In this document: piece after piece, positions 2,040-23,098 of the stretch
Numbering within the stretch: the stretch's first letter is position 1
How the letters are laid out: each line of letters starts with the position of its first letter
DNA from: Christensenellaceae bacterium
GTDB lineage: Bacteria > Bacillota > Clostridia > Christensenellales > UBA1242
NCBI GenBank assembly: GCA_031260975.1
Contig: JAISKJ010000003.1
Span: 629,109 to 661,108 of the forward strand
Length of the DNA: 32,000 bases
Reading direction: 5' to 3'
Notes under the pieces: model-generated
What the model saw: only the letters and a program-made list of their open reading frames with translations
What the model was told of the DNA's origin: nothing
The model's database searches: none
Program-made: the position numbers and the translations under genes

Positions 2040-5000
2040 TTACTTAATTTCAGGCCCGTTCTCTTCAACGTCAGCGTCTGCCTTAGCTTCTTTTGTCTTG
2101 GCAACTGTAGTCTTTTTGGCACCGGTACCGCTGGAAGTTACTCCTGCTTTTGCCGGCTGTCCTTTAACCTTTCCGCCTCTGATGAAGTATATAATTACGC
2201 CAGCCAAAATCAAGAGAGAAATAACAATAAGAATGGTTCCCAGAACTTCATTTGAAATTCCGCTGGTGCTGCCCTCCACCAAAACGGTGATAGAACGGCT
2301 GAATGTTGCGGTGTTTCCTGCCATGTCAGTGCTGGTTACAGTAAGAGTATATCTTCCTGCCTTGTTAAGCGTCCAAGTATATATCTCGCTGTTGTCACCC
2401 GTTTGAGTAGCCTCCACTCTCACGCCGCTTTCATCTGTCAGAGCAATAGTGTTAACCTTAAGCTTGGGGTCCGGGTTGGTGTCATCATCATCATTTGAAG
2501 CCCTGTCAATGTTGTCGGTAATCAAAAAGTCTGCAAGTGTGTTTATCGAGATAGTTCCGCCGATGGTTATGGTTTCTTTAACTTCCTTTCCTTCAACAAA
2601 TTCAATTACCGGAGGAATAGTGTCACCCACGGTGATTTGTATAGTCTTGGAGTCTGCAGAGTTGCCGTTGAGGTCTTTTGCAGTATATGTTACCGTATAA
2701 GCGCCTCTTCTCGTGGGAGTAAACCAATACTCATTAGCAGTAGTGTCATTTGTATCAAAAATAAGGTTGGTCTTTGAAAGAGCTATCAGTTCAGAACCGC
2801 TCATCGTGCTGCCGTCAACTTCTTTAAGACTATAAGTTCTGTCAGGTCCTACAACCTTAGCCTCACCCGTACTTCTAAGTCCGTCCAACTCATAAGGAAG
2901 GTCGCTCTGGTCATAAGTGATAAACAACGGAACAGAAATTCTTCCATAAAGTGAAGCATCACTTACGTTGGCAAAGAAAATCTGAATAGCGTCAGTCATA
3001 GCGTCACGACCGTCTGTTCTAAGCTCCAAAATAGGCTTACGTGTGTCAACAACTCTTATACTAGCATCCTTAGTGGTCTCATAACCTGCATCATCTATAA
3101 CTGAATATCTTATAGTATAAGTTCCTATGTTTTCGGGAGTAAATATAGTCCCGCTTACAAGGCTTGCATTTTCAACGCAAGTAATTTGTATTCTGTCTGA
3201 AATATCTCCGGGACTTCCACCCACATCATTGTCATGAGCAGTAACATTTCCAAGGTCTTTTCTTGTTCCAAGCTCCATTTCAACCACAGTGCTTGACACT
3301 CCGCTGAGTGTCGGGGGCTCGGTGTCGGTCAACTGCTTGATTTGATAAGTGATTGAACTGAAGTTGTTGCCTACGTCAACCGCGGTATAAGTTACAGTAT
3401 ATTTTTCGGCAAAGTTAGGTGTAAAACTAATACCGGGGTGCTGATATTGATATTTGCGTCCGTTGACGTCTGCTGCAACCTCTGTTCTTACGATTTGACC
3501 AAGGGTTTGATACCCTGTTACAACATTCCCTCTTTCATCTCTCACAGTCACAGCTATTCTCAGTGATGGGTCGTTGTCAAAGAATGTCACACCGCTTACA
3601 TAAAGAGGTGCACCTTGTTCATAGGTGTTGGCGGCTCCCGGTCCGGTTACCCCATCAAAAGCCGAGTCATTTCCGTTGGCTACTGTTACAACAGGCCTTA
3701 CTATGTCATTAGTGTTTTTAACAGATATATTTTTCTTTTGTTCAGTAACATTTCCATAGTCATCGGTAGCTTTGGTCACAATAGTAATCATATCACCGTT
3801 GCCCGGAAGCGTCGCAAGTTCATATATAGTGTTTATGCTGTCAAGTGATAGGTCGTCGCTTTTGAAACTAAGCATAGCGCTGTTATCTTCATCTTCACCG
3901 ATAAAGTATATAGCGTCGCCAATGTTACCACTGCCGTTCAGAGTGATATAATATTGAGTTCTGATATTGGTGTCATAGTTGTCGGTTACGGTAGGTTTTG
4001 TAAATCTATATGTCTTTCCGTCTTCAATAAGTGTAGGAAGGTCAACCGGATATGTTACGGTCGGACCAACACTGTCAACCAAAACATCCTTAATGCTGAA
4101 AGTGAATGTCCAGCTTGCGCTGTAACCGTTTCCGTCACTTACTCTATATGTTACGGTATAGTCACCCGCAACGGTTATTTTTCCGCCCGGTCCTATAGTA
4201 ATTGTAGCTAATTCAGCTGCTCTCTTCTGAGCAGTGTCAGCTCCCGCACTGTGATATATTGCGTCCTGCAGGTCTATTTCAGTAAATCCGGCAACAGTTG
4301 AGGTAATTCTTCGGGTAAACGTCAGATTTTCAAAAGGTACAACAGTGTCTTCACCATAGATTGCCGGAAAAGATATCTGTATCATGTTAAGCCCATAAGT
4401 TGTCGGAACCATCCACTTAGCGTCAGCTCTGTTGATAGTGTCAGCGATTGTAGTGGGATCAGCCGTAAGCTCGGCAGAATAATCCTCAACCACAAAGAGC
4501 TTTGGCGCCATGGTGTCTCTTACATTTTCAATGCTGAAAGGCTCTACTTCGGCTTCGTTTCCATAGAAGTCTCTAACCTTATAAGTTATTTTGTATTCAC
4601 CGTTTTGTTCAGGTATGAAGTAATAACCGTCGTCATCTTTCAAAATCGGAAGAGGTGCACTCAAAGTACTTGCATCAACACGATGCTGAACTGTTATCAA
4701 AGTGTGTACGTTAATAGTTGCGTTTGCATCGTTTTTATTGAAAGCCGAAGCCAACGGAAGTCTTACTTTCTCTTTCAGGCTGGCGCTTGTTGCAAGACCG
4801 CTTACAGTAAAACCAATGTCAAATGTCTTTTTATAAACAGTGCTTCCTACAACAGTCTTGTTAAGGGTAGAAATAACTGCACCATTAAACAGCACTGCGT
4901 ATCTTATAATGTTTGTTCCGGCATCAGGCGTAAACTTGTAGTTTCCGCTGCCGTTGTCAGGAAGCTGCACACCGCTGCTGTTGTCAGAAGAAAGTCTCTG

Positions 5001-5711
5001 GGTGTTAATAACTTCAATCCTAAGCCCATATCCCTGAGCATTGGGATTTGTTGAAAAGTCTATAACATCTCCATTTGCGTCTTTTACAATAGGATTTGGT
5101 ATAACCACATCTACAACGCCGCTGACCGATCCGCCCAACACATTGATGGGAAGAATGATATTGTCATTAGTATCGCCGGGGTTGTTGCCGGGAATCTCAA
5201 TCGTAACCTCTTCGCCCACAACATTTATAATAAAAGTCTGGCTGGTGGTTGAATATTCGTTGGCACCGGGCGTAACATAACCAAAGCCTTCGTTGAGGTC
5301 ATAAGAATATACAACAGTATATCTGTCAGCAGATGTTGGAGTAAACTTAAATCCGTTGCTGGTGTCACTGTCATAAGGTATAACTCTGCCGCTGCTGTCT
5401 TTTATGGTAGGCTTAACATTGGGATTAACGACAAAAACATTAGGCACCACACCGGCATCGGCCAGCGTACCTTTTGGCAACGTAATAATATGCCCTACCT
5501 TGCTCTGAGTAGGAATAGGATCCATAGAAGTATCAACTGATATGATTGCACCCGTCGCTGTCTTATCTCCTACACCGGGAGCTGTAAAAACTGAATAGCT
5601 CCTTGTCTGATAGAACTGCTCTGTTAAACCGCCGATAGGTGGGGCTACTAACGCTCCTCCCATGACGAGTACTAAACTTGATGCAGCCACAATTCTATGA
5701 AATTTTTTCAT
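2040..5711 (-). CDS. large cell-surface protein with tandem Ig-like (HYR/DUF5011-like) domains, an N-terminal signal peptide and a C-terminal TM anchor
   Basis: AGGAG RBS and signal peptide MKKFHRIVAASSLVLVMGGALVAPP. The strand motif Y(T/K)(V/I)TY..D..GN recurs at least 8 times (GEYKITYKVRDFYGNEAE, GDYTVTYRVSDGNGYSAS, EKYTVTYTAVDVGNNFSS, GTYTIRYSVIDDAGYETT, GAYTVTYTAKDLNGNSAD, GRYTLTVTSTDMAGNTAT). Module starts look like DTEPPTL, DTRKPIL, DTIPPVI, DTMAPKL, DSVGPTV. The C-terminus has a helix ILIVISLLILAGVIIYFI followed by a charged tail. No LPXTG motif. Confidence 0.85.
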   Translation of the reverse strand: MKKFHRIVAASSLVLVMGGALVAPPIGGLTEQFYQTRSYSVFTAPGVGDKTATGAIISVDTSMDPIPTQSKVGHIITLPKGTLADAGVVPNVFVVNPNVKPTIKDSSGRVIPYDSDTSNGFKFTPTSADRYTVVYSYDLNEGFGYVTPGANEYSTTSQTFIINVVGEEVTIEIPGNNPGDTNDNIILPINVLGGSVSGVVDVVIPNPIVKDANGDVIDFSTNPNAQGYGLRIEVINTQRLSSDNSSGVQLPDNGSGNYKFTPDAGTNIIRYAVLFNGAVISTLNKTVVGSTVYKKTFDIGFTVSGLATSASLKEKVRLPLASAFNKNDANATINVHTLITVQHRVDASTLSAPLPILKDDDGYYFIPEQNGEYKITYKVRDFYGNEAEVEPFSIENVRDTMAPKLFVVEDYSAELTADPTTIADTINRADAKWMVPTTYGLNMIQISFPAIYGEDTVVPFENLTFTRRITSTVAGFTEIDLQDAIYHSAGADTAQKRAAELATITIGPGGKITVAGDYTVTYRVSDGNGYSASWTFTFSIKDVLVDSVGPTVTYPVDLPTLIEDGKTYRFTKPTVTDNYDTNIRTQYYITLNGSGNIGDAIYFIGEDEDNSAMLSFKSDDLSLDSINTIYELATLPGNGDMITIVTKATDDYGNVTEQKKNISVKNTNDIVRPVVTVANGNDSAFDGVTGPGAANTYEQGAPLYVSGVTFFDNDPSLRIAVTVRDERGNVVTGYQTLGQIVRTEVAADVNGRKYQYQHPGISFTPNFAEKYTVTYTAVDVGNNFSSITYQIKQLTDTEPPTLSGVSSTVVEMELGTRKDLGNVTAHDNDVGGSPGDISDRIQITCVENASLVSGTIFTPENIGTYTIRYSVIDDAGYETTKDASIRVVDTRKPILELRTDGRDAMTDAIQIFFANVSDASLYGRISVPLFITYDQSDLPYELDGLRSTGEAKVVGPDRTYSLKEVDGSTMSGSELIALSKTNLIFDTNDTTANEYWFTPTRRGAYTVTYTAKDLNGNSADSKTIQITVGDTIPPVIEFVEGKEVKETITIGGTISINTLADFLITDNIDRASNDDDDTNPDPKLKVNTIALTDESGVRVEATQTGDNSEIYTWTLNKAGRYTLTVTSTDMAGNTATFSRSITVLVEGSTSGISNEVLGTILIVISLLILAGVIIYFIRGGKVKGQPAKAGVTSSGTGAKKTTVAKTKEAKADADVEENGPEIK

Positions 5712-16911: not shown

Positions 16912-16950
16912 CAAATTAAAAGAAAACTAAACCTTAGTTCAGTTTTCTTA
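16912..16950 (-). terminator. candidate terminator at the end of the AAA+/VWA operon
   Basis: On the minus strand, AAGAAAACTGAA, a loop and TTTAGTTTTCTT form an AT-rich stem with one bulge, followed by TTTAATTT. Confidence 0.4.
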
Positions 16951-17000: not shown

Positions 17001-18587
17001 TTACATTTCCCTTCCCATATCTTGTTGCGGAACGGTTTCAAACTTCATTTTTTCAAGCTCTTCATTGCTTAGCTCAATAACCTTGCCGCCAATGGGCGAA
17101 AAATTAGCCTGACCGCCAAACACCAGCCACATAACACCGTCTGCTTTGGTTTTTTGTTTATGGCTTGACCTGCCGTCCAGCTGCCCGTCAGTAAACACTA
17201 TCTTATTTGTGCGGCACTTTGGGTTTGGAGTAAATGCCGTGGCTGCTGCTTCAAAGTTGGTGCCGTCATCATCCCTTGTTGCACGAAATTCCTCAACCTG
17301 CTTTTTTGAGGTTAATTCCTGAAATCCGTGAAAATTTCCGCCGAAACACCCCACTTTTATGTCAGTTTCCTTAAACATAGGCACAAGCTGCAACAAAAAG
17401 CCGCGCAGCAATGTGTCACTGATGCTGCCGCTGGTGTCAAGCACTACCTCAGTTGTTGCTCTTCCTTCAACTTCAACATCGTCTACACGCACATTCGGAT
17501 TATACTTTGACGAACGCCTGTAGACCCATCGCTCTTCCTGCTCTTCAACAGCCTTTACCAAAAGCCGCTTCCATGAAAGCACGGGCTTCACATATTTGGG
17601 GTCTTTTATTCCGGCGGTTTCAAAAATGCCGGCAAACGCTGCCTTTGTTCTGACTTTTGTTTCTTCATCGCGCTGAATTTCATTTCGCTCAAACTCGCGG
17701 GCTTCGTCAACAGGCCTAGTTATTTCCTTCTTTTCCTGACGCTGCTCAGATTTACTCTCGTCCAGATTTTTTTCATTGGGCTTTCTGTTTTTCATTATTC
17801 TGTTAAGCAGGTCTTTTATGCCCTCGGCTTTCCCGCTGTCCTTCTGCTCTTTTTCAGGCTCATTCCAAATATCATGGTCGTCAAAGCCCTCATAATTTTC
17901 AAGGTCTATATCATCAAGTCCGCCGCCGATTTTTTCATCGTCTTGTTCAGACTTTTCCGGCTGACCTTCTTGCTTATCCTGATTTTGCGGTTGACTTTTG
18001 TCCTGCGGCTGATTTTGCTGTTGATTTTGAGTTTTTTGGTCCTGCCCTTGCTCGCCGGTTTGTGGACTGCCCTCTTTGTTTTGCTGACACTGTTTTTCTT
18101 CCTGCTGTTTTTGTTGCTTTTTTACAAGCTTGTCATAAATCGCTTCGGCGTTTCGATATAACCCGTCAGCAATATCCACATGTCCGCTCATAAGCGGCTT
18201 GCCATCGTCGCCCATCACAGGATTACCATTTCTGTCAAGCACAGGTTTGGGCTTGGGAGGTTCCAATCCGTCTCTTTTTAAAAAGGCGTTAATGCAGGCA
18301 TCGGTCGCTATATTCCAAAGCTTCTGATGCTCCTTATCATTGCCTCGCTGAACATGGTTAAAAGCGATATGACATATCTCATGAGCAAAAACGAAGTCCT
18401 TTTCGTCATCCGAAAGCTCAGCAAAAAAATCTGGATTATAAACTATCTCCTTGCCGTTTGTGCCTGCGGTTTTAATGTCCTTGCTTGCAATGACATTAAC
18501 ATCAAAAATTTTAGCACCAAACGAGGGATATTTCTCCAGCACCCTTTCTTTTATCTCTTCAATTTCATTTCTTTGTTTTGTCGGCAC
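17001..18587 (-). CDS. DUF2201-type protein: N-terminal HExxH metallopeptidase-like domain, Gln/Glu/Lys-rich linker, C-terminal VWA-like domain
   Basis: GTG start at 18587 with a GAGG RBS. HEICHIAFNH...LWNIATDACIN matches the metallopeptidase-like motif pattern. The linker reads QQKQQEEKQCQQNKEG...QNQQQNQPQDKSQPQNQDKQ. The C-terminal MIDAS-like VVLDTSGSIS...GTNFEAA...FTDGQ is VWA-like. Confidence 0.8.
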   Translation of the reverse strand: MPTKQRNEIEEIKERVLEKYPSFGAKIFDVNVIASKDIKTAGTNGKEIVYNPDFFAELSDDEKDFVFAHEICHIAFNHVQRGNDKEHQKLWNIATDACINAFLKRDGLEPPKPKPVLDRNGNPVMGDDGKPLMSGHVDIADGLYRNAEAIYDKLVKKQQKQQEEKQCQQNKEGSPQTGEQGQDQKTQNQQQNQPQDKSQPQNQDKQEGQPEKSEQDDEKIGGGLDDIDLENYEGFDDHDIWNEPEKEQKDSGKAEGIKDLLNRIMKNRKPNEKNLDESKSEQRQEKKEITRPVDEAREFERNEIQRDEETKVRTKAAFAGIFETAGIKDPKYVKPVLSWKRLLVKAVEEQEERWVYRRSSKYNPNVRVDDVEVEGRATTEVVLDTSGSISDTLLRGFLLQLVPMFKETDIKVGCFGGNFHGFQELTSKKQVEEFRATRDDDGTNFEAAATAFTPNPKCRTNKIVFTDGQLDGRSSHKQKTKADGVMWLVFGGQANFSPIGGKVIELSNEELEKMKFETVPQQDMGREM

Positions 18588-18598
18588 TTTTTACCTCA

Positions 18599-18997
18599 CT
18601 AAATTTTTATGTAAGTCAAAAATCTGCTCAGCTTTGGGTTTATTTTTCTGCCCGTGCTGCTGCTTGTCAAAATAATGCAACAGTTGTCGGGCAGTTTGGC
18701 GTTTGAAATTGTGCGATACTTTACAATTTCTAAAAATCTCTCCTGCTCCTCTTCGCTAAGCCTGTCAATATCCTCAAAAACCAGCAGATTAACTTGTTCA
18801 TTCTTTTTTTCTAAAACTGCATTGTACCAACTTGGAAAAACCGCCCCATTCCTTCCCATAAACACGGCAAACTCGGTTTTGGGGGCGTTAGCCTCAACTA
18901 CAACTGAATTTTTAAACTGCTTTGAATCAAAGCCCTCGAGCCACAAAGGCGTAAGGTTATCTTTTATATACTCTTTTACCGTTTTAAACTTATCCAT
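18599..18997 (-). CDS. small hypothetical protein resembling an AAA+ core that lacks a Walker A lysine
   Basis: 132 aa. The ATG overlaps the stop of the upstream ATPase gene (TAATG at 18995-18999). LLVFEDIDRLSEEEQERFLEIV...CCIILTSS resembles Walker B plus sensor-1 spacing. VFMGRNGAV occupies the P-loop position without GK(S/T). Confidence 0.6.
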   Translation of the reverse strand: MDKFKTVKEYIKDNLTPLWLEGFDSKQFKNSVVVEANAPKTEFAVFMGRNGAVFPSWYNAVLEKKNEQVNLLVFEDIDRLSEEEQERFLEIVKYRTISNAKLPDNCCIILTSSSTGRKINPKLSRFLTYIKI

Positions 18998-20910
18998 TAC
19001 TGTTCAACCCCCTTATTAAGGTCTAAGGTTTTATCAGTTTGAGTGCCCATCCTTCCGTATTCAATCGAATTATATACCGCATACATCTCTTCGCCGAGCT
19101 CATCCTTAATAAACTTCTTCACTATGTTCTTATCATCTTTGGAGGTGTTTAGAAGCGAACCTAAAACAAACATTTGGTCAGAAATGTTTTCCATGGGTAT
19201 ATGCTCATAATCCTTTTTCTTAATATCCTCAACGGTTATTTGCGGGCGCGAAACAAACTCACAAAGGCTGGAAGCAACATCCTTGCCCACCATGTCGGAT
19301 ATTCTGTCCTGACTGATTTTGCCGCGCTTTTCGGCCTTATACAAAACCTCCGAAACCTTTTCCCACTTTCGCGGGTCCAGCGTAGGCTTATGGTCACCTG
19401 CCTCGTCATCATATCCACTATAAAGCACTTCAGTGTTGCCCATCACAAATGCCGAAACCAGCGGATGAATTTTTGTCTGTCCGCTGCCGTCAGACTTCAT
19501 CTCATATCCCCACTCTATCCACGAATGTGTGTCCAGCGGAATTTCTATATGCGAATCAAACCTTCTAAACAGCGGTGCCGGCATGTTATAGGCCGCTGTA
19601 GACTCTTCCTTGCTGTTTCCGGCAGCAATCACCACGGCATTGTCGGGGAGCTCCCAAAGGTTTGGACGCACAGTGCGATTAAGCACAATATCATAAACCA
19701 TGCTCTGGGTTGTTTCTTTGACATTGGTCAGCTCATCAATAAACAAAGCCTGCTTTCTGTTAGGTTCTTTTTTACACTTTTCACAAAGCAGCGTATACCA
19801 ATAAGGCGGATAAATCATTCCGGGGTCGCCGTTTGGCTCCTTGCCTCCCACTACCTCCTCGGGCATCATGCCGTTTCTGAGCACAATGCTGGTATAGGTG
19901 GGGTCAAGCTCATAAACCCTTCGTGATTTTCCCACGCCCGACAGACCATGCAGCATCATGCTGCACCCGTCCTCAAAGTTTTCCAGCATCCTCTCTTTTA
20001 TGCTTGCCGAGCGCGTGATTTCAAAAGCCCCCTTTCGTTTGGAGTCCCGAGTCGCTCCGTTTTGAGGTGCAGCAGTGTTTTGAACAGCGCTTTTTTGAGG
20101 GGTTATATCCTTTGCAAAATGGTTGTTTAAATATGCTCCTCCGTCAGACTTATCCAAGTTTCCGTCATAGGTGCCGCTGTTGTTCATCTGAATACCCGCA
20201 TACATAGCGTTTTCGGCCACAGCCCATTCCTTGTTGGTTTTTTTGTCTTTCAGAATTAAAAAAGTTACCGGTTCCACTTTTACCCAGTATTCTTTGCCTT
20301 CTTCAAATTTTGCTCCGCCGGCCAGCTTATTTTGGTCGCCGCTGTCATATGTCAAAGCCTTGACTTTCACATACTTCTGACCGTCCAGAATATATTCCTC
20401 CAGCTCTCTCGGGCTGAATTTTTGTTTATAATATTTTTCTTCGTATTTTGTCGGTACTGAATCTACCGTATACTTCTTACCCGTCTTATTTTTGCCGCCC
20501 CCCAACACACTGTTGAGCCTTTTTTCAAGGTCAGAGCCGGGCTCAACCGCTGTCTGCGGATATTCAAGGTTTGATTTATAAGTAGGAACCCCTTCTGCGT
20601 TTTTCCCCCTCACTCCGTTCGGGGAGATTGTCAGGATGTCAGAGAACAGCGAAGCTGGACGTGCCGCGGGTCTCCTACTGTATGAGTAATACCAATTTCT
20701 AGTTGCGTCGGTGTAGACGGTAATGACATAATCATTATTATGCTTAGAGGCAGACCACCAAACGGAACGACCGTTTGCGGAACTTATATATACACCCAAA
20801 AGTTTGGCAAAGTCAGAGGCTCTGCAAGCTGCCCATTTGCTGGCCGGAGGGTCAAAATCCTCCCAGATTTGAGCCTCAGTGGGAAAGGTCCATTTAACAG
20901 TTGCAGCCAT
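18997..20910 (-). CDS. DGR target protein: N-terminal variable DUF1566/C-type-lectin-like module fused to a MoxR/AAA_5-like AAA+ ATPase
   Basis: GGAGGAG RBS and ATG at 20910. Residues 7-88 (WTFPTEAQIWEDF...GRSVWWSASKHNNDYVITVYTDATRNWYYSYSRRPAARPA) fit the W.(L/F)PT...(Y/W)WS(S/A)...(V/A)R(C/P)(V/A) pattern. Walker A LHGLSGVGKS, Walker B ALFIDELTN, sensor-1 VVIAAGNS and PLFRRFD are present. No signal peptide or TM helix. Confidence 0.85.
   Translation of the reverse strand: MAATVKWTFPTEAQIWEDFDPPASKWAACRASDFAKLLGVYISSANGRSVWWSASKHNNDYVITVYTDATRNWYYSYSRRPAARPASLFSDILTISPNGVRGKNAEGVPTYKSNLEYPQTAVEPGSDLEKRLNSVLGGGKNKTGKKYTVDSVPTKYEEKYYKQKFSPRELEEYILDGQKYVKVKALTYDSGDQNKLAGGAKFEEGKEYWVKVEPVTFLILKDKKTNKEWAVAENAMYAGIQMNNSGTYDGNLDKSDGGAYLNNHFAKDITPQKSAVQNTAAPQNGATRDSKRKGAFEITRSASIKERMLENFEDGCSMMLHGLSGVGKSRRVYELDPTYTSIVLRNGMMPEEVVGGKEPNGDPGMIYPPYWYTLLCEKCKKEPNRKQALFIDELTNVKETTQSMVYDIVLNRTVRPNLWELPDNAVVIAAGNSKEESTAAYNMPAPLFRRFDSHIEIPLDTHSWIEWGYEMKSDGSGQTKIHPLVSAFVMGNTEVLYSGYDDEAGDHKPTLDPRKWEKVSEVLYKAEKRGKISQDRISDMVGKDVASSLCEFVSRPQITVEDIKKKDYEHIPMENISDQMFVLGSLLNTSKDDKNIVKKFIKDELGEEMYAVYNSIEYGRMGTQTDKTLDLNKGVEQ
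20649..20770 (-). repeat. DGR variable repeat (VR), codons 47-88 of the target gene
   Basis: 122 nt aligned without gaps to 22291-22412, 110 of 122 identical. There are 12 mismatches, 11 of them where the TR has A on the minus (sense) strand. Confidence 0.9.
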
Positions 20911-20970
20911 AACAGTCTCCTCCGTTTCAGTTTTTCTTTTTTAGAAAAACCCATTTTTTTTTATATTTTT

Positions 20971-20999
20971 ATTTTATCACATTTTTTTGTTATTGTAAA
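20971..20999 (-). promoter_or_regulatory. candidate internal promoter for the target/AAA+ operon
   Basis: In the 99-nt gap between RT and target, on the minus strand: TTTACA (20994-20999), a 17-nt spacer, then TGTGATAAAAT (20971-20981). Confidence 0.4.
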
Positions 21000-21009
21000 T
21001 ACCAAAACA

Positions 21010-22041
21010 TTACTTTTTTGTTTTTTCTGTTTCTACAGCACGTTTCAGCCTCACGCTTTCGTTGCTGTGCTTGAGATGAGCGCTAAAGGCGTTTTTTCGC
21101 ACTTCAATATAATCATCATCCACAATGTTTTTGGCTCTCAGCTTTAAAAGTGTTTGCAAGTGACGCTTAAGCCTTACCCTTGCCGAACCGCGCAATTTTA
21201 TTATAACCTTGCCCGTTTGGGTCAGATAATGCCTGAACCCCAAAAAGTCTATGCCGTTTTGAACTCTGCCTATCTGCGTTTTGCGGTTTAAAAAAAGCTT
21301 TAGGCTTTGTTCACAAACCTCCTTTATCCGCTTCAAGCAATAATGCAGATATTTTTTGTCACGGTGAATAAGGATAAAGTCATCCATATATCGCACGTAC
21401 CCCTTAATATGAAGCTCCTCCTTAACAAGCCTGTCGATGGGGTCAAGATATAACAGTGCAAACCATTGGCTGGTTTGGTTCCCCAGAGGCAAACCTACTC
21501 CGGTGTAGTTTGGCTGCTCTTTAATCAGCTTTTGAATAAACCACATTTCGTCTGCGCCAAAGCCGCATTTCTTAAGCTTTTCTAAAAGTATATCATGATT
21601 GATGCTCTGAAAATATTTTGAAATGTCACACTTAAGATAATAAATCTTATTATCCCCTCCCCGAAAAAACTCCTGCTTCAAAAATTGTTTGAGCCGCTGC
21701 ATACCAAAATGCGTGCCCTTGTTTTTGCGGCAGGCAGCGTTGTCGTATATCAATCTTTTTTCAAGTCTTGAAAGCAGCGAATTTAAACAAAAACACATCA
21801 TAACTACCCTGTCTTTATAACTAGGCGCCTCAATCAGTCTTTCTTTGGGGTCATATATCTTAAACTCTTTATAGCCTCCAAAGCCAAACTTTTTGCTGAC
21901 TAATTCCTTTTCTAATGCGGCCAAAGTTATGCCGAGCGTGGTTTCAAAACGCACAACCTCTCCTTTGTGTTGCTTGGCTCTTCGGCACCGCTTGTGAGCC
22001 TCATACAAATTTTCAAAACAAAAAATTTCATTTAAGTTCAT
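21010..22041 (-). CDS. DGR reverse transcriptase
   Basis: RT motifs include LPLGNQTSQWFALLYL (the LGxxxSQ signature typical of DGR RTs) and YMDDFILI. I prefer the ATG at 22041 (MNLNEIF...), preceded by GAGGGA, over the GTG at 22053. The TR lies upstream. Confidence 0.9.
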   Translation of the reverse strand: MNLNEIFCFENLYEAHKRCRRAKQHKGEVVRFETTLGITLAALEKELVSKKFGFGGYKEFKIYDPKERLIEAPSYKDRVVMMCFCLNSLLSRLEKRLIYDNAACRKNKGTHFGMQRLKQFLKQEFFRGGDNKIYYLKCDISKYFQSINHDILLEKLKKCGFGADEMWFIQKLIKEQPNYTGVGLPLGNQTSQWFALLYLDPIDRLVKEELHIKGYVRYMDDFILIHRDKKYLHYCLKRIKEVCEQSLKLFLNRKTQIGRVQNGIDFLGFRHYLTQTGKVIIKLRGSARVRLKRHLQTLLKLRAKNIVDDDYIEVRKNAFSAHLKHSNESVRLKRAVETEKTKK

Positions 22042-22053
22042 TTTATCCCTCAC

Positions 22054-22290
22054 GCTTTGACTGCATTAAAAGAACGCCCCCTTAAACTTATAAAGCACAG
22101 GCCGGGCCCGGCATTATTTGTGTGGGCGCTCAATTTCTTCCACCGACACTCGGCGTTTTAGAGTTAATCCAAAAACCATTAGCGGTCAGAAAAGAGAAAA
22201 ATTCCTTCGCTTTAAGGCACGGATGTATTTTGCTTAAAATACACTTATCTGGCCTGTTTTCTAAATCCGCTCAAAACGGTTTCTTCAAAA
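22054..22290 (-). ncRNA. DGR spacer region between TR and RT (expected part of the TR-containing template RNA)
   Basis: Non-coding 237 nt directly 3' of the TR on the minus strand. In the characterised Bordetella phage DGR, the spacer downstream of the TR is part of the functional RNA and supplies the priming site. The function here is inferred from position only. Confidence 0.5.
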
Positions 22291-22412
22291 GCGAATCTGG
22301 ACGTGCCGCGGGTTTCCTATTGTTTGATTAATTCCAATTTCTATTTGCGTCGGTGTTGACGGTTCTGACATTATCATTATTATTCTTAGAGGCAGACCAC
22401 CAAACGGAACGA
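22291..22412 (-). repeat. DGR template repeat (TR)
   Basis: Non-coding copy of the VR. The sense strand is rich in AAY codons (AAT AAT AAT GAT AAT ... AAC ... AAT ... AAT TAA TCA AAC AAT AGG AAA) and contains an in-frame TAA. The 3' end is GC-rich and shared with the VR (CCCGCGGCACGTCCAG). Confidence 0.9.
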
Positions 22413-22455
22413 AACCCAACCATACAATCTTTCCCTTAATTAAAAGCCTTTCGGC

Positions 22456-23043
22456 CTAAAATCCATTTCTATTTTTCTTCCATCTCTGGTCGTCACTTCT
22501 CTTCCATGCCGCAATCAAGTTGATAGCCTCCCCTGTCTGGACAGAAATCTGTTTATACTGCTTTGGCAAAATGCAGCCTGCGCTCTCAGCCACCATGGCA
22601 ACATACCCAAGCATTTTAAGCCTGATGATTGCTTCTTTTTGCAAGTTCTCACGCTCTTTCTTGTTCTCCCCACTGTCCATCCTCAAAAAGTTTGCCCGCA
22701 ACAAGTCTTGTAAGGCTTCAAGCACAAAATTCTGCATCCGGTTCACAAACACTCCGCGGAATTTTGCAGGAGACCTTTGAGTAACCAAAATTATATAAGC
22801 TCCAAGCTTTTTAATGACAGTTATCACAATAAGGTCACTGCTCTCAGCAGGGATTTTACAAACGCTTTCCCATTCACGGTCGCGCCAAGAGGCATCTTTT
22901 TGCGCCTGAGTTTTGTCAAATCTTTGGCCCCTGGCCATAGCCGCAGCATGACCTATTGACACTTCATCTTGAATGCTGTTGATTTTGCCCTCAGCGTCAT
23001 CAACAGTTTTCGGTATCCTTAAACTCTTATCGCGGTCATGCAT
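22456..23043 (-). CDS. avd: Avd-like accessory variability determinant (four-helix-bundle protein) with an N-terminal extension
   Basis: I prefer the ATG at 23043, preceded by GAGAGGGA; the GTG at 23064 falls at or upstream of the predicted transcription start. The C-terminal 130 aa (YIILVTQRSPAKFRGVFVNRMQNFVLEALQDLLRANFL...RLKMLGYVAMVAESAGCILPKQYKQISVQTGEAINLIAAWKRS) fits the Avd helical pattern. The gene lies immediately 5' of the TR. Confidence 0.75.
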   Translation of the reverse strand: MHDRDKSLRIPKTVDDAEGKINSIQDEVSIGHAAAMARGQRFDKTQAQKDASWRDREWESVCKIPAESSDLIVITVIKKLGAYIILVTQRSPAKFRGVFVNRMQNFVLEALQDLLRANFLRMDSGENKKERENLQKEAIIRLKMLGYVAMVAESAGCILPKQYKQISVQTGEAINLIAAWKRSDDQRWKKNRNGF

Positions 23044-23069
23044 TAAATCCCTCTCTTTTGTCACGGCCT

Positions 23070-23098
23070 ATTCTATCACACCTCATTCATTCTTTCAA
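23070..23098 (-). promoter_or_regulatory. candidate DGR promoter
   Basis: On the minus strand: TTGAAA (23093-23098), a 17-nt spacer, then TGTGATAGAAT (23070-23080). It lies about 27 nt upstream of the avd ATG. Confidence 0.5.

Follow-up and report, generated by a model that had tools for sequence, protein, structure and literature searches.

We describe a diversity-generating retroelement (DGR) of canonical machinery encoded in a 32,000-nt stretch of DNA from a gut Christensenellaceae bacterium (hereafter the window, to whose positions all coordinates refer). Read on the minus strand, the cassette comprises in order an Avd-like accessory gene, a template repeat (TR), a 233-nt spacer, a reverse transcriptase (RT) gene, a target gene that carries the variable repeat (VR), and two further genes for proteins of 132 and 528 aa. 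The features on which the assignment depends, among them a GC-rich segment resembling an initiation of mutagenic homing (IMH) element, are the following.

22456 to 23064, minus strand: Avd-like accessory gene, 202 aa (phrog_3206 'Avd protein of DGR', E=1.3e-14)
22287 to 22412, minus strand: TR, non-coding, with 41 A in its 122-nt core and a TAA at 22328-22330 in the VR frame
22297 to 22312, minus strand: GC-rich 16-mer CCCGCGGCACGTCCAG at the TR 3' end, TR copy (IMH*-like), identical to the VR copy
21010 to 22053, minus strand: DGR-type RT, 347 aa (Pfam RVT_1, E=3e-17; phrog_1423, E=5e-95)
18997 to 20910, minus strand: target gene, 637 aa, predicted DUF6273-like module (aa 1 to ~275) followed by a predicted MoxR-class AAA+ ATPase (aa ~300-620)
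20645 to 20770, minus strand: VR, codons 47-88 of the target, forming a 126-nt repeat with the TR
20655 to 20670, minus strand: GC-rich IMH-like core CCCGCGGCACGTCCAG at the VR 3' end, VR copy, identical to the TR copy

The two repeats differ almost exclusively at template adenines. The ungapped alignment of 20649-20770 with 22291-22412, at an offset of 1642, contains 12 mismatches, and at 11 of these the TR base is a plus-strand T, hence A on the sense (minus) strand; with 41 adenines among the 122 sense-strand nucleotides of the TR core, a hypergeometric test assigns P = 2.0e-5 to at least 11 of 12 mismatches falling at a TR A. A first-pass annotation, made from the sequence alone, had proposed this pair, and its 12 mismatch positions and bases are all reproduced, as are its count of about 41 adenines and its view that such a concentration is not due to chance; our recount does not find mismatches distributed over all four template bases. 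The limits of the repeat required revision, since the homology extends 4 nt beyond the 122 nt originally given, to 20645/22287, and includes one more T>G difference (20647). A repeat search finds the pair independently, as 126 nt of 90% identity, and a blastn search of the TR against the window identified neither a further TR copy nor a second VR. An open reading frame (ORF) of 44 aa at 22285-22419 lies in a frame other than that of the VR and was discarded, as it is supported by nothing.

In the frame of the 637-aa ORF, the changed codons are H57, Y61, I63, Y66, T70, Y74, Y75, Y77, S78, R80 and A86, exactly as first listed, and the template codons at these positions are mostly AAT or AAC (7 of 11), again as described. 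The sole non-adenine mismatch of the core (20723/22365, TR G to VR T on the minus strand) adjoins an A>T change, the two together converting codon 63 from AGA to ATT. The shared GC-rich 3' end noted in the first-pass annotation is present in both copies as CCCGCGGCACGTCCAG; 3' of this 16-mer the TR and VR diverge stepwise (A/C at 22296/20654, T/G at 22289/20647) until homology is gone, and by these sequence features the 16-mer and the fixed differences after it constitute an IMH-like element. Codon 86 (20654/22296) reads GAT in the TR and GCT in the VR (RPDL vs RPAL) in all 17 related DGR loci. Because the same A-to-C difference occurs in every related locus, it represents a fixed IMH/IMH*-type mark between TR and VR and not random mutagenesis, so that one of the 11 adenine mismatches originally ascribed to mutagenesis must be set aside. 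On its 5' side, the TR strand of the predicted template:primer duplex described below directly abuts this adenine (22296), which lies at the edge of the copied segment and may mark the start of the cDNA. The earlier reading of the locus as a DGR stands; its description of the repeats as direct evidence of mutagenic retrohoming is better replaced by that of a footprint left by past retrohoming.

The proteins encoded on either side of the TR conform to this assignment. DGR-clade RTs are defined by [ILV]GxxxSQ in motif 4 and by YxDD, and the RT of the window carries LGNQTSQ (residue 190) and YMDD (222), which on sequence places it in the DGR clade. Its nearest phage counterparts are the RTs of gut-phage DGRs (Phage nd12, 40%; FP_Brigit, 35%), and RTs of Bordetella phages also match. 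The Avd-like protein matches Pfam bAvd (E=6.6e-4) and NCBIfam DivGenRetAVD (E=3.3e-4), with neither score reaching the cut-off of its model, and is 49% identical over 197 aa to the product of a 202-aa gene located at the same position in a related locus (L005). In 13 further loci the Avd-like core is 51-70% identical and the RT 52-56% identical. The Avd homology covers residues ~65-199, preceded by an N-terminal extension of ~65 aa ahead of the four-helix region; among relatives (199-202 aa) the length of this extension is kept and its sequence partly so. Typical Avd proteins are shorter than 202 aa. None of the three ORFs (Avd, RT, target) is disrupted, and the catalytic motifs are present.

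A third line of evidence comes from the RNA encoded between the TR and the RT gene. The segment from the TR 3' end to the RT start was aligned for the window and eight relatives (9 loci in all) and folded with RNAalifold, yielding four elements.

22288 to 22295, minus strand: TR strand UUCGCUUU of a predicted TR:spacer duplex, with CC at 22299-22300 giving two more pairs
22223 to 22244, minus strand: 9-bp stem plus tetraloop, GUGUAUUUU-AAGC-AAAAUACAU, candidate Avd-binding stem-loop, with compensatory changes in all 9 pairs
22204 to 22213, minus strand: spacer strand AAAGCGAAGG of the TR:spacer duplex, candidate primer strand by covariation and analogy with BPP-1
22189 to 22200, minus strand: near-invariant spacer box UUUUCUCUUUUC, located after the spacer strand of the duplex, 10 of 12 columns invariant in all 9 loci

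In the predicted helix, UUCGCUUU (22288-22295) pairs with AAAGCGAA (22206-22213), together with the CC:GG pairs, and encloses the 9-bp tetraloop stem. Across the 9 loci, 100% of the cells of this TR:spacer helix are paired and 3 of its 8 pairs show compensatory changes, one of which (U>C with A>G) is unique to the window. Considering all 19 named pairs, 94.7% of cells pair and both sides have changed in 12; none of 500 shuffled controls reached the observed values, and sliding the partner strand by 1-3 columns reduced pairing to 32-60%. In the electron cryomicroscopy structure of the BPP-1 ribonucleoprotein, TR117-129 pairs with Sp47-56 as the template:primer duplex, and in 207 of 278 DGRs the stretch directly following the TR has been described to contain Avd-binding stem-loops of ~9 bp with tetraloops (bioRxiv 10.1101/2023.10.23.563531). 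By analogy, the predicted structured RNA flanking the TR matches both the BPP-1 template:primer duplex and the description of the Avd-binding stem-loop. An Rfam scan of the whole window returned three tRNAs only, the DGR spacer RNA being matched by no curated family. The relatives additionally have a conserved long hairpin and U-run just before the RT start codon (alignment columns 220-280), which resembles an intrinsic terminator between the DGR RNA and the RT gene; the equivalent in the window (22054-22130, minus strand) is weak only, GCCGGGCCCGGC.

The target belongs to a family of large proteins (~650 aa) that are ~35% identical over near-full length, and a scan of one genome per GTDB species recovered 78 such loci, 23 of them with the N-terminal module. 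Avd and RT genes lie directly upstream in 13 of the 78 species-representative loci, and in 12 of the 23 with the N-terminal module. Their hosts comprise gut Clostridia (Christensenellales, 'Eubacteriales') as well as gut 'Alphaproteobacteria' that are uncultured and represented by metagenome-assembled genomes (MAGs). Pooled over 17 DGR-bearing loci, namely the 13 species-representative loci and four assemblies of one relative, the TR/VR substitutions number 288 at A and 26 elsewhere (288/314 at A), and some of the 26 stem from gapped alignments. The four assemblies (L005, L007, L008 and L009) share the exact synteny of the window, including Avd, TR and RT, and are especially informative in that they hold one TR and four different VRs, with substitutions at TR adenines in 18/18, 9/10, 16/17 and 13/13 cases, respectively. 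Likewise, in two clusters formed at 90% identity (129 and 51 members), full-length members vary essentially only between WSAS and ARPA, the segment corresponding to the VR. The VR is hypervariable at adenine-dictated positions in relatives of the same synteny, and it is from these relatives that the evidence for activity comes.

Other relatives keep the three-gene module of target and partner genes with neither RT nor TR within 8 kb. Several MAGs carry two or three loci of the ATPase family (L021/L018, L047/L049/L073, L053/L061/L064, L051/L069/L086, L025/L067/L074 and L028/L043/L076), most with N-terminal regions that do not match the module of the window, and the sequences suggest that the ATPases form a paralogous family with exchangeable N-terminal domains. 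At loci L001-L004, which encode protein P0019, there is no RT or TR within 8 kb, and the protein is identical in 42 contigs from different samples; its sister clusters differ by a few residues inside the VR-equivalent block, which could possibly be served by a trans-acting DGR or be a frozen former VR. Neighbours of L001-L004 include phage-like genes (Phage_Mu_F, lysozyme). We also compared the GC hairpin found within the coding sequence of relatives (L036-L039 vs L040; L005, L046, L060, L075, L077 and L087), which has a 3-nt loop, as in CCTGCCC-GAA-GGGCAGG. Most DGR-less relatives are without it; L040, closely related to L036-L039 and with no local DGR, keeps it.

The target has the same sequence as NCBI MDR0850562.1, 'MAG: ATP-binding protein [Christensenellaceae bacterium]', which comes from an 828-kb contig. 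For the N-terminal module of the target (residues 1-290), AlphaFold2 (AF2), supplied with a 55-sequence alignment, gave a model with a mean predicted local distance difference test (pLDDT) score of 90.6, in which strands 61-65 and 71-75 and the loops next to them hold the variable codons; the secondary structure suggests that the VR residues may be exposed. Eight of the 55 family members match PF19789 (DUF6273) with their N-termini, over profile positions ~54-171, and a hidden Markov model of the family's first 105 residues, built without the rows known to match DUF6273, found DUF6273-positive relatives at E = 5e-26 to 9e-4. The assignment of DUF6273 to the C-type lectins is taken from the literature. 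When residues 1-290 were searched against 1.84 billion representatives, 713 clusters were recovered at E<=1e-3, many of them ~270-330 aa long or fused to other domains, so that the ATPase fusion is one architecture of a wider module family.

The C-terminal half (residues 291-637, AF2 pLDDT 87) most resembles NorQ (9qh6, E=1e-8, TM-score 0.64 on the target) and CbbQ (6l1q, E=3e-8) in Foldseek searches, followed by McrB, dynein and Rea1, matches that belong to the MoxR side of AAA+. Walker A (GLSGVGKS, 322) and Walker B (LFIDE, 389) are intact, and a weak Pfam AAA_5 match (E=0.003) was obtained. By structural likeness of the model and by these motifs, this half is classed as a MoxR-class AAA+ ATPase. 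PDB sequence searches with the ATPase, the family profile and the 528-aa protein returned noise only, and no Ig or Fn3 domain was detected in the target. Phage families are matched by the ATPase and DUF2201 proteins (phrog_1297 and phrog_1314), and MoxR-like ATPases of ~25% identity occur in phage genomes.

Beyond the target lie the two partner genes, listed here together with consensus matches to regulatory sites.

18599 to 18997, minus strand: 132-aa gene, overlapping the target stop codon (weak Pfam Sigma54_activ_2, E=0.007)
17001 to 18587, minus strand: 528-aa zincin-like metallopeptidase and VWA-like protein (HEICH at 69; Pfam DUF2201_N, E=1.4e-27)
23070 to 23098, minus strand: promoter-like site directly upstream of the Avd-like gene, TTGAAA-17-TAGAAT with a TG extension, 10/12, a consensus match only
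20971 to 20999, minus strand: promoter-like site between the RT and target genes, TTTACA-17-TAAAAT with a TG extension, 10/12, a consensus match only
16920 to 16949, minus strand: strong terminator-like hairpin behind the 528-aa gene, with a 13-bp stem and then a T-run, a consensus match only

The 132-aa protein has a Walker-B-like VFEDID without a P-loop and yields tblastn matches inside the ATPase domains of paralogues, and may be a degenerate, Walker-A-less AAA+ subunit or fragment. The VWA-like DUF2201 portion of the 528-aa protein scores E=6.2e-5, below cut-off. Loci L001-L009 have a gene of 127-156 aa and then a DUF2201_N/DUF2201 gene behind the target, and in most related loci tblastn matched the 528-aa protein downstream of the ATPase match. 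The target, 132-aa and 528-aa genes form an apparent operon, and the cassette probably ends at the hairpin at 16920-16949. Transmembrane segments and signal-like hydrophobic stretches are absent from all three proteins, and from this we infer a cytoplasmic location.

The cassette is flanked on one side by hflX-like and engB-like GTPase genes, clpX, clpP, tig, rluD-like, lspA and rpiA, and on the other by tRNA-Arg, tRNA-Leu and tRNA-His; as these are core chromosomal genes, the cassette is not in a prophage. Elsewhere in the window (2040-5711, minus strand), a 1223-aa ORF with C-terminal bacterial Ig-like, Big_13 and PKD-type repeats presumably encodes a surface protein; it has no connection with the DGR and matches no TR-like repeat.

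Taken together, we consider it very probable that the locus is a complete chromosomal DGR whose TR/VR pair rewrites the N-terminal module of a cytoplasmic MoxR-class AAA+ ATPase. The steps can be drawn by homology with BPP-1, with support here from the presence and conservation of the sequence elements. The avd-TR-spacer transcript would fold such that the TR 3' end UUCGCUUU pairs with spacer AAAGCGAA around the 9-bp tetraloop hairpin, which would bind Avd; the RT-Avd complex would then prime cDNA synthesis from the spacer strand, copy the TR and misincorporate opposite adenines. The resulting cDNA would replace the VR, and the GC-rich IMH-like core, together with the fixed TR/VR differences that follow it, would make this replacement directional. 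As an outcome, up to 20 codons (56-80) could be rewritten, for about 10^19 protein variants displayed on a predicted beta-hairpin and adjoining loops. Less certainly, and by analogy, the N-terminal module may be a hypervariable ligand sensor, coupling the binding of a target to ATP-driven remodelling of the co-encoded metallopeptidase-VWA protein.

Several results weigh against this interpretation. The variant check proposed in the first-pass annotation gave the expected adenine-restricted VR variation in relatives and no variants at the locus itself: the target protein forms a singleton cluster, the only other contig shows 100% identity across 7.7 kb and is apparently a second assembly of this genome, and JGI metagenome scans with a peptide pattern and with the exact TR pattern were both empty. 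With no variants of this locus, current activity of this copy is unproven. The IMH-associated hairpin that had been suggested 3' of the VR also failed to appear by computation; the DNA fold of 20570-20670 has z = +1.43 and a 5-bp stem with a 12-nt loop only, an exhaustive search within 130 nt 3' of the VR found no stem >4 bp, and the perfect 5-8 bp GC hairpin located ~50 nt after the RPAL codons in 7 of 9 DGR-bearing relatives is absent from the window. A hairpin or cruciform just 3' of the VR occurs in many DGRs and is not universal. One core mismatch, furthermore, falls at a non-adenine. With respect to the target, there is no Pfam DUF6273 (PF19789) match to the protein itself, and Foldseek with the N-terminal model found nothing, C-type lectin or other, better than E=0.3 (PDB) or 0.04 (BFVD). 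Finally, PADLOC gave no defence-system match above noise for the target, 132-aa or 528-aa protein, and because no such model matched the target module, the sensor or conflict role is argued from analogy.

These points have to be set against three other accounts of the locus. The simplest, an ordinary duplication or gene-conversion tract with the TR derived from part of a coding paralogue and the adenine bias arising by chance, accommodates the existence of a 126-nt repeat and nothing further, and its likelihood is negligible. The TR reads an in-frame TAA in the VR frame and so cannot be a coding paralogue, a possibility that the first-pass annotation had named as fatal to its own reading and that is also dismissed by the position between Avd and RT and by the conserved, covarying spacer RNA 3' of the TR; chance is opposed by the adenine bias (P = 2e-5) and by recurrence of the arrangement at 13 species-representative loci and in another relative's four assemblies, where 288/314 substitutions are at A. 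It is distinctly more conceivable, and still quite improbable, that the element is a recently silenced relic whose TR/VR differences record past retrohoming and which no longer mobilises. The lack of variants at the locus, the single non-adenine mismatch and the missing downstream GC hairpin of most DGR-bearing relatives would all fit such a relic, as would the in-frame TAA of the TR, which would turn most new events into null alleles, and the precedent of Wu et al. 2018, who discarded over half of candidate DGRs as defective. Yet the Avd, RT and target ORFs are intact with catalytic motifs present, only 1 of 12 core mismatches is at a non-adenine, in-frame TR stops also occur in clearly active relatives, and a compensatory double change found in this lineage only has preserved the TR:spacer duplex.

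The third account accepts the DGR and concerns the role of its product. Instead of an immune sensor, the ATPase module could be a substrate adaptor for a MoxR-VWA chaperone or protease acting on the cell's own or mobile-element proteins, or a device of phage origin for host manipulation, and we give this a real, if minor, chance of being correct. The nearest structures, NorQ and CbbQ, are maturation or activase chaperones with VWA partners, the phrog_1297/phrog_1314 matches and the phage MoxR-like ATPases at ~25% identity point toward phages, no PADLOC defence model rises above noise, and many relatives hold the three-gene module without any DGR. A hypervariable binding surface, however, is hard to square with a fixed housekeeping substrate; published analyses read DGR-linked MoxR-vWA systems as conflict systems (PMC7159879, PMC10907252), and the cassette of the window lies among core genes and not in a prophage. 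A complete DGR that diversifies a cytoplasmic, ATPase-linked module therefore remains our preferred reading, with the sensor role as its less certain part.

The template itself has an unexpected property. TR codon 75 is TAA (22328-22330, minus strand) and its VR counterpart TAC, and further TR codons can mutate to stops (AAG, AGA twice, and AAA); with uniform misincorporation of 27-50% per adenine, the ORF would stay open in 26-42% of full-length homing events. Three other TR lineages among the relatives likewise contain an in-frame TAA (the L005 group with L060; L054; L033). In-frame stops are found in the VRs of L007, L009, L046, L054 and L060, L008 has a 1-nt deletion, and among the 15 listed members of the P0028 cluster 11 gene calls are truncated at the N-terminus. 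Published work holds that DGR template codons avoid nonsense outcomes (PMC10907252; bioRxiv 10.1101/2024.11.15.621889), and these TR stops and nonsense VR alleles run against such a 'nonsense-free' codon design. TAA is the sole kind of template codon from which adenine-only mutagenesis reaches Trp, and it also gives access to Phe, Tyr, Cys, Leu and Ser; relatives show W, F and Y at this site. The stop may be a selected ON/OFF device, a tolerated cost or decay. That it is selected, making the DGR a specificity randomiser and at the same time a stochastic ON/OFF switch for a cytoplasmic MoxR-VWA-metallopeptidase sensor system of gut anaerobes that are not multicellular, we think unlikely; if so, the price would be a truncated sensor in roughly 60-75% of homing events, and the stop could silence self-reactive or costly variants of a potentially suicidal system.

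Comparison with known systems helps to separate what is conserved from what has been adapted. As in the BPP-1 DGR, whose target is Mtd, the order is Avd-TR-spacer-RT, TR and VR differ specifically at adenines, a GC-rich IMH-like core is followed by TR/VR differences, and, as in the structure of the BPP-1 bRT-Avd ribonucleoprotein, the TR 3' end is predicted to pair with the spacer around a 9-bp tetraloop hairpin. Unlike BPP-1, the element of the window is chromosomal and not phage-borne, its target lies downstream of the RT, its VR is N-terminal within the ORF and has no hairpin directly after it, its Avd bears the ~65-aa N-terminal extension and its TR contains an in-frame stop; because the VR is near the N-terminus inside the ORF, the IMH is here coding sequence. 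DGRs of gut phages diversify DUF6273 domains, including those of the 'tentaclins' of Phage nd4/nd12 and Faecalibacterium phages (PMC10743442, PMC11792537). The nearest annotated RT, at 40%, is that of Phage nd12, one of the tentaclin phages, and the VR similarly occupies a stretch close to the N-terminus that is probably related to DUF6273 and forms a predicted beta-hairpin with flanking loops. Tentaclins, in contrast, combine Ig-like domains with an anchoring Ig domain at the C-terminus and are regarded as virion proteins, whereas the target is a predicted cytoplasmic ATPase fusion encoded on a chromosome; with no Ig or Fn3 domain and an AAA+ ATPase as its C-terminal half, it is not a tentaclin.

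A different set of parallels is offered by the MoxR-vWA (VMAP) ternary conflict systems of cyanobacteria and Chromatiales, in which DGRs diversify C-lectin sensors (Kaur et al. 2020, PMC7159879; Dore et al. 2024, PMC10907252). These share with the locus the combination of a DGR, a MoxR-class ATPase, a VWA protein and a peptidase, and a plausible cytoplasmic ligand sensor. In the VMAP ternary systems, though, the VR resides in a C-terminal C-lectin domain of the formylglycine-generating enzyme (FGE)-sulfatase type on the vWA protein, MoxR is a separate gene (with an N-terminal WxhapG/PsWRxa region), VMAP is a third component and the hosts are multicellular, whereas here the variable segment is N-terminal, DUF6273-like and on the ATPase, the VWA protein has a zincin-like DUF2201_N domain, and the hosts are not multicellular. 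Since the third gene is the 132-aa AAA-like fragment and not VMAP-like, and the VR is on the ATPase, membership in this class was rejected. NorQ-NorD and CbbQ-CbbO provide the best structural matches to the ATPase domain and likewise encode a VWA-domain partner nearby, but they have no hypervariable domain and no metallopeptidase on that partner, function in enzyme maturation, and show ~10-12% sequence identity. A full-text literature search turned up no paper that pairs a DGR with DUF2201, and, judged from the text or the title and abstract of most of them, the papers mentioning both DGRs and MoxR do not report such an architecture.

The great majority of DGR targets are surface or virion proteins whose variable domain lies at the C-terminus, and cytoplasmic NTPase-linked targets have so far come mainly from multicellular cyanobacteria and sulfur bacteria. 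Against this background the mechanism is well known; what is unusual is the target, in which a variable domain is fused to the MoxR motor itself, and the nonsense-prone template. A phage-type, DUF6273-directed DGR before a MoxR ATPase recurs in 13 species-representative gut genomes from Clostridia and 'Alphaproteobacteria', and the recurrent TR stops and nonsense VR alleles challenge the general claim that DGR template codons avoid nonsense. Being compact (about 6 kb, six genes) and free of the confound of multicellularity, the system could test whether hypervariable intracellular sensors drive AAA+/VWA/protease effectors.

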